A stretch of 64,000 bases of DNA from Escherichia phage Mizar. The stretch lies in sequence record PV714129.1; one strand, given 5' to 3'. Within the stretch, counting starts at the first letter, position 1. Each line of letters begins with the position of its first letter. This document shows, piece after piece, positions 27,790-28,456 of this stretch. A program made the position numbers and the translations under genes. A model generated the notes under the pieces. The model did not search any database, was not told the DNA's origin, and was given only the letters and a program-made list of their open reading frames with translations.

Positions 27790-27988
27790 GTCACCTTTAA
27801 GCAGTATTCTTCTACATGCTGTTTACGACCTTTCTTATCAATAAAGGTATATTCAACGAATGTTCCAATGTAGTCTTTATCGACATCATGTGGACTATTA
27901 ATTGGTCATTTAGTACGACAAATGCGTTCCCATTGACGAATAATTACTGCTTTATTTTTAGGATCAAACGGATGTGGGTAATGCACAT
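27790..27988 (-). pseudogene. Frameshift-interrupted small gene
   Basis: MNVHYPHPFDPKNKAVIIRQWERICRTK stops, then an ATG-less frame continues PINSPHDVDKDYIGTFVEYTFIDKKGRKQHVEEYCLKVTWL. Confidence 0.35.
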
Positions 27989-28456
27989 TCATAATAATGG
28001 TTCCCAATCAACAATCACAATTTCTAGTTTAGTGGAATATGTATCAAGAATTTCTTCAATGATATCCCAGTTTCCACCACCTATACCTGCACCAATTCTT
28101 GGCATATAAATTACAGGCTTTGTTATCTTATTTTTTCCGAATTCATTTAATTCTATTATACAATTCATTAAAGCATAGTACTCAAAATTAGGTCCCGGCT
28201 CAAACTGTGTATAAAGATTAAAGCAATAAGCTTTATGGGTCTTAAAATATTTTTCATAAACCGAATAGGAACCGAGTTTAGACTCGTCTCCGAATTCGGT
28301 TTGAAGTTTATCGGCTTCTAAAATTTTTGGATAAGCCTTTGCTAATTGACCTGCTACACCGGCGCCCATTGTATGAAAACAATTGCACCCATGAGCAATA
28401 TTATTACCTTTAGAAAACAGGGCGACAATATCGCCCTTGATATAGTTTTTAATCAC
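27989..28456 (-). CDS. Macro-domain-like protein (putative ADP-ribose binding/hydrolase)
   Basis: Gly-rich motifs NIAHGCNCFHTMGAGVAG and IYMPRIGAGIGGG resemble macro-domain signatures; 155 aa. Confidence 0.45.
   Translation of the reverse strand: MIKNYIKGDIVALFSKGNNIAHGCNCFHTMGAGVAGQLAKAYPKILEADKLQTEFGDESKLGSYSVYEKYFKTHKAYCFNLYTQFEPGPNFEYYALMNCIIELNEFGKNKITKPVIYMPRIGAGIGGGNWDIIEEILDTYSTKLEIVIVDWEPLL

Follow-up and report, generated by a model that had tools for sequence, protein, structure and literature searches.

The orthologue of the T4 gene tk.3 in Escherichia phage Mizar (sequence record PV714129.1), of which we analysed a 64,000-nucleotide stretch (the window), carries a single T-to-A nonsense substitution, C29*, in an otherwise intact DUF7202 gene, and lies directly beside an intact tk.4 gene that encodes a true macrodomain protein. 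As written, tk.3 is a pseudogene or nonsense allele, and we consider it probable that it records a genuine and recent loss of function by substitution of one base in a dispensable gene. The macrodomain identity of the neighbouring protein and its probable counter-defence role are already known from the T4 Tk.4 orthologue.

A single substitution interrupts tk.3

The tk.3 orthologue occupies positions 27780–27992 on the minus strand (70 codons and a stop, with one in-frame TGA inside), and its ATG (27992–27990) overlaps the TGA stop of tk.4 in the tetranucleotide ATGA. Translated in one frame from 27992 to 27787 it reads MNVHYPHPFDPKNKAVIIRQWERICRTK*PINSPHDVDKDYIGTFVEYTFIDKKGRKQHVEEYCLKVT, in which the first 28 codons (MNVHYPHPFDPKNKAVIIRQWERICRTK) and their stop form a translated remnant at 27906–27992, whilst the orphaned C-terminal part, 41 codons and the normal stop without an internal start codon, spans 27780–27905. 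The premature opal TGA falls on the codon for Cys29 at 27906–27908, the altered base being 27906 (coding position 87). The following CCA codon (27905–27903) is in phase with this TGA, and the frame then stays open for 41 codons to the TGA at 27782–27780. Alignment with the gene of Shigella phage SHSML-52-1 is gap-free with 212 of 213 bases identical, the sole difference being TGT to TGA at codon 29, so that the two proteins are 100% identical except at that codon. The tk.3 genes of T4 and SHSML-52-1 are both intact, encode 70 residues and have TGT (Cys29). T4 Tk.3, itself a DUF7202 protein, shares the length, the position and the overlapping start and stop signals of the window gene and is 97% identical as a protein, but its codon 29 is TGT whereas that of the window is TGA, where 28 residues are made. 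With Cys29 restored, the window protein matches DUF7202 (PF23832) across residues 1–70 of 70 at 132.3 bits and also matches phrog_2008, yet the uninterrupted frame with its invariant Cys29 is broken by the TGA.

Genome context

The whole window is a segment of a T4-like myovirus genome, a Mosigvirus like its closest relative, SHSML-52-1 (NC_031090), to which it is ~97–98% identical, with values of ~95–99% among collinear blocks. The 1.4 kb around tk.4 and tk.3 shares 99.5% identity with SHSML-52-1 and 94–99% with many other Escherichia and Shigella phages. Gene names and order follow the annotated records of SHSML-52-1 and T4, and all genes of the region lie on the minus strand: regB (29344–29802), vs.1 (28793–29335), vs (28449–28796), tk.4 (27989–28456), tk.3, tk.2 (27598–27783), tk.1 (27404–27601) and tk (26830–27411). 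The order vs, tk.4, tk.3 is the same in the window, T4 and SHSML-52-1. The next gene downstream of tk.3 is the orthologue of tk.2, a DUF7438 gene named from the T4 annotation, and its ATG overlaps the normal tk.3 stop in a second ATGA. The products of tk.1 and tk.2 are paralogues of each other, both matching DUF7438 and phrog_653, a pattern that points to tandem duplication of a protein of 61–65 residues. A scan of the region for promoters found nothing above shuffled expectation, and a terminator scan found no terminator-like site inside tk.3. An antisense frame of 97 codons at 27816–28109 on the plus strand is not peculiar to the window, being open in both T4 and SHSML-52-1; its product is altered by substitutions that leave Tk.3 and Tk.4 unchanged, which places selection on the minus strand, and we regard the frame as a spurious shadow.

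Elsewhere in the window, a 223-residue open-reading frame (42567–43238, minus strand) carries a weak NUMOD3 motif together with a DUF559 (Vsr-like endonuclease) domain that scores barely over the Pfam threshold. It sits between a tRNA-Arg gene (42506–42581) and the tRNA-Asn and tRNA-Met genes (43307–43459). The two tRNA genes annotated in SHSML-52-1 are direct neighbours without such a frame between them, and the frame has the look of a homing endonuclease inserted among the tRNA genes. Four SHSML-52-1 coding sequences lack a tblastn counterpart in the window: a 154-residue hypothetical protein, two internal head/virion proteins and a 72-residue hypothetical protein. There the window differs in sequence at about 31890–32323, 41094–41814 and 23033–23139 (SHSML-52-1 positions 31773–32394, 22509–22973 and 41032–41250), as is typical of the hyperplastic regions of T4-like phages.

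Tk.4 is a macrodomain protein

The tk.4 gene starts with GTG, overlapping the vs stop, and encodes 155 residues. The first-pass annotation had pointed to two glycine-rich segments in this frame as macrodomain-like and to a possible counter-defence activity; the first proposal is correct and the second plausible. The segments are present, on the minus strand, as MGAGVAG (residues 30–36) and IGAGIGGG (residues 121–128), and correspond to the conserved macro loops, with G33, G122 and G124 invariant among 38 homologues. Profile search and structure prediction agree on the domain. The protein scores 27.3 bits on Pfam Macro (PF01661), for which the gathering cut-off is 22, over profile positions 2–117 of 118, and matches phrog_335 with an E-value of 3.5e-66, and among solved macrodomains its sequence matches BT1257 (2FG1/2AFC, E ~9e-11), yeast Poa1p, SCO6735, DarG and TARG1. 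An AlphaFold model built with the 38 homologues (pLDDT 95.6, pTM 0.91) has the three-layer alpha/beta/alpha macro fold, and Foldseek paired it at probability 1.00 with TARG1, Poa1p and the DarG macrodomains of Thermus, Mycobacterium and Thermosipho (TM 0.67–0.80), and at the same probability with viral macrodomains.

In T4, tk.4 was the single gene depleted on a DarTG2-expressing host in the HIDEN-SEQ preprint, and its clean deletion sensitises T4 to DarTG2, for which it was renamed adfM, anti-DarT factor (bioRxiv 10.1101/2025.11.20.689424). The requirement of AdfM for DarTG2 resistance makes the counter-defence role plausible for the window gene, which we assign as the adfM orthologue on its Pfam and phrog_335 matches, its identity to T4 Tk.4, and the AlphaFold and Foldseek results. 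Both proteins are 155 residues long, share 85% identity over 155 of 155 positions without gaps, lie between vs and tk.3, and have a macro fold closest to TARG1, Poa1p and DarG; the RefSeq record of T4 Tk.4 likewise notes an A1pp motif. They differ by 23 substitutions, and in the second glycine loop T4 has GKG where the window has GGG. By analogy with the T4 knockout, the most likely activity of the window protein is to strip DNA of the ADP-ribose attached by DarT2-type toxins.

The DarG macrodomain (PDB 5M31, 5M3E and 5M3I) and human TARG1 (4J5R) share the fold of Tk.4 (Foldseek E 1.9e-10 to 2.4e-7, TM ~0.68–0.76) at only 19–25% sequence identity (sequence-search E ~1e-3), and unlike DarG, Tk.4 is a stand-alone phage protein without a DarT partner. 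The motif N80-x-Y82-T83-Q84 is invariant across the 38 homologues, and the position of the catalytic lysine of TARG1 and DarG appears to be taken by Gln84 in Tk.4, in an uncertain alignment. A mapping of Tk.4 catalytic residues onto TARG1 K84/D125 was rejected, as the central region aligns too uncertainly. If Gln84 does replace the lysine, AdfM-type macrodomains may use another catalytic arrangement, closer to that of Poa1p or BT1257. A terminator-like hairpin, AGGGCGATATTGTCGCCCT followed by GTTTTCT (28419–28437, minus strand), falls inside the opening 40 nt of the tk.4 coding sequence; the region holds six terminator-like sites against 2.0 ± 1.6 expected.

Tk.3 is conserved but dispensable

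Among 22 database homologues, Cys29 and Pro30 belong to only 11 invariant positions of Tk.3. Codon 29 is TGT or TGC in all 13 of the other homologous loci compared, from T4 to relatives of ~69% identity (loci L001–L014; L015 was left out as a repeat of the SHSML-52-1 gene in L001). The C-terminal half of the gene is under purifying selection in relatives, with, for example, six synonymous and no non-synonymous codon differences against locus L006, so the 41 codons belong to a functional protein in normal genomes. An AlphaFold model of Tk.3 (pLDDT 85.5) predicts an N-terminal loop followed by beta-strands at residues 16–27, 39–51 and 57–69, and the 28-residue remnant comprises the loop and strand 1 of this predicted three-strand sheet. 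A search of PDB folds with the model gave a best E-value of 0.15 and found no structural relative.

In a T4 transposon library, insertions in tk.3 were found at 23 of 23 TA sites and the gene was classed as non-essential. It is also repeatedly disrupted in individual isolates: in the homologues P0015 (Schickermooser), P0016 (Escherichia phage T4 'T47t1_112') and P0017 the lesions are frameshifts, with divergence after about residue 40, whereas that of the window is a nonsense codon at residue 29.

The TGA allele is private to the window sequence

A 30-mer carrying the TGA had no match in 50,697 phage records (megablast with 28-base seed words, each of which has to include the altered base), whilst the TGT version of the same 30-mer was found at 100% identity in 232 of them. 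A 61-mer spanning the lesion matched 667 records, none identically. IMG/VR, JGI metagenome contigs and GTDB genome contigs were scanned with exact and degenerate patterns and yielded no Tk.3 homologue with TGA; 49 IMG/VR matches to a short degenerate pattern had no homology to Tk.3 and were discarded as chance. Among the collections searched, the allele is thus private to the window sequence. It is also isolated within the genome, as tk.3 is the only one of 109 SHSML-52-1 coding sequences compared with the window by tblastn to have a mid-gene premature stop. One other was flagged, with a stop at residue 88 of 89: the orthologue of an 89-residue SHSML-52-1 hypothetical protein (12185–12451, minus strand), which stops one codon early at aligned position 88, a trivial C-terminal difference. 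A lone mid-gene stop among 109 genes argues against genome-wide reassignment of TGA and against an error-ridden assembly, and we reject both.

Alternative explanations

The first-pass annotation had correctly seen the ATG overlapping the stop of the macro gene and the halt after 28 codons, and had read what follows as a continuation in another frame, that is, as one ~68-aa gene broken by a frameshift. One gene of about 70 residues is indeed broken, and at the position it gave, but the continuation lies in the same frame and the break is the opal codon at Cys29. Because both parts share one frame and no indel separates them from the orthologues, the lesion is an in-frame stop. A +1 or −1 frameshift near 27905–27912 that splits tk.3 across two frames is refuted by the one-frame translation with its single asterisk and by the gap-free alignment to intact orthologues, and we give it practically no credence. 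Equally negligible is the reading of two independent small genes, of 28 and ~41 residues, as the normal state of this position, since related phages have one intact 70-residue Tk.3/DUF7202 frame here rather than two genes (as does every relative examined), the second part has no start codon and DUF7202 spans residues 1–70; it too is refuted. A weightier alternative, though still an unlikely one, is that the TGA is a base-call or assembly error, or a minority variant taken into the consensus, and that the real phage has TGT and an intact tk.3. The gene is otherwise identical to that of SHSML-52-1, the altered residue is invariant, the allele occurs in no other record searched and the downstream half has not decayed, all of which speak for an error. 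Yet the altered base lies outside a homopolymer, in AAATGTCC, and was substituted, whereas platform errors are typically indels, the 108 other coding sequences compared have no mid-gene premature stop, as expected of an accurate assembly, and a real mutation would be unremarkable in a dispensable gene that is disrupted in other isolates. Perfect identity to an intact relative outside codon 29 fits both a real mutation and an error.

A further reading, which we hold to be very improbable, is that the UGA is decoded productively, as selenocysteine or by efficient readthrough with Trp or Cys, and that full-length Tk.3 is made. The TGA replaces exactly an invariant cysteine, the signature of a Sec/Cys exchange, although a random TGT-to-TGA change gives the same alignment of UGA with Cys; the frame beyond it is perfectly preserved, and the stop stands in a leaky UGA-C context, E. 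coli being able to decode UGA as Trp or Cys. The sequence after the UGA can fold into a modest hairpin (−12 kcal/mol, z = −1.77), but this is not significant, as 8 of 200 shuffled sequences fold equally well. The RNA after the UGA does not differ from that of Cys-encoding relatives, which means that no SECIS element has evolved with the UGA, and we found neither a hairpin specific to the Sec form nor recurrence of UGA in relatives, no other homologue in the phage, IMG/VR, metagenome and genome collections having TGA. The region has no Rfam match and no 17-nt SelB-type hairpin ~11 nt past the UGA; the only tRNAs in the window are Arg(TCT), Asn(GTT) and Met(CAT), with no suppressor among them, and no other gene of the 109 compared has a mid-gene in-frame TGA. 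If it were true, recoded Tk.3 would give T4-like phages their first selenoprotein or their first case of programmed opal readthrough. We also considered, from sequence only, a gene-60-type bypass from AAA (Lys28) to an in-frame AAA 33 nt downstream, and rejected it as unsupported; such a bypass would remove both C29 and P30, which are invariant, and the window sequence has no feature that sets it apart from its normal relatives.

Probable consequences of a genuine nonsense allele

Under a genuine loss-of-function substitution, translation would begin at the ATG sharing bases with the tk.4 stop and end 28 codons on; the ATGA overlap suggests that translation of tk.3 is probably coupled to that of tk.4, which lies upstream of the lesion and would be unaffected. 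The released 28-residue peptide would be without two of the three predicted beta-strands, and judged by this truncated predicted fold the allele is probably null or strongly hypomorphic. In E. coli the weakest four-base stop signal is reportedly UGA-C (a result attributed to Poole, Brown and Tate, EMBO J 1995). Some readthrough may occur at such a weak terminator: a few per cent of ribosomes may pass the UGA by inserting Trp, or less often Cys, incidentally rather than in a programmed manner, and traces of full-length C29W or even wild-type Tk.3 are possible. Of the premature stops in E. coli K-12, TGA is the most readily read through, at up to a few per cent with mainly Trp and sometimes Cys inserted, though the fourth-base trends in the same study differ in part from a ranking of UGA-C as the weakest signal (PMC11126739). 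Downstream, a putative Shine-Dalgarno site, AAGGTGA, can be read at 27791–27797 (minus strand), 7 nt upstream of the tk.2 ATG (27783–27781), and with this site of its own tk.2 should still be expressed when coupling to tk.3 is lost. The mutation would be tolerated because tk.3 is dispensable in T4. The absence of decay in the orphaned C-terminal half fits a very recent mutation, and would equally fit an error or continued use through readthrough.

The wider importance of the locus is small, as the tk.4/adfM gene of T4 is already described and the tk.3 lesion is either a nonsense allele private to this sequence or a base-call error. The accessory gene is best seen as carrying an ordinary allele, null or leaky, unless its stop is a sequencing error, and tk.3 should be annotated here as a pseudogene or nonsense allele, neither as a frameshift nor as two genes. 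If the mutation is real, the phage would be a natural tk.3 knock-down, which could be compared with SHSML-52-1 or LF82-type relatives for a Tk.3 phenotype.
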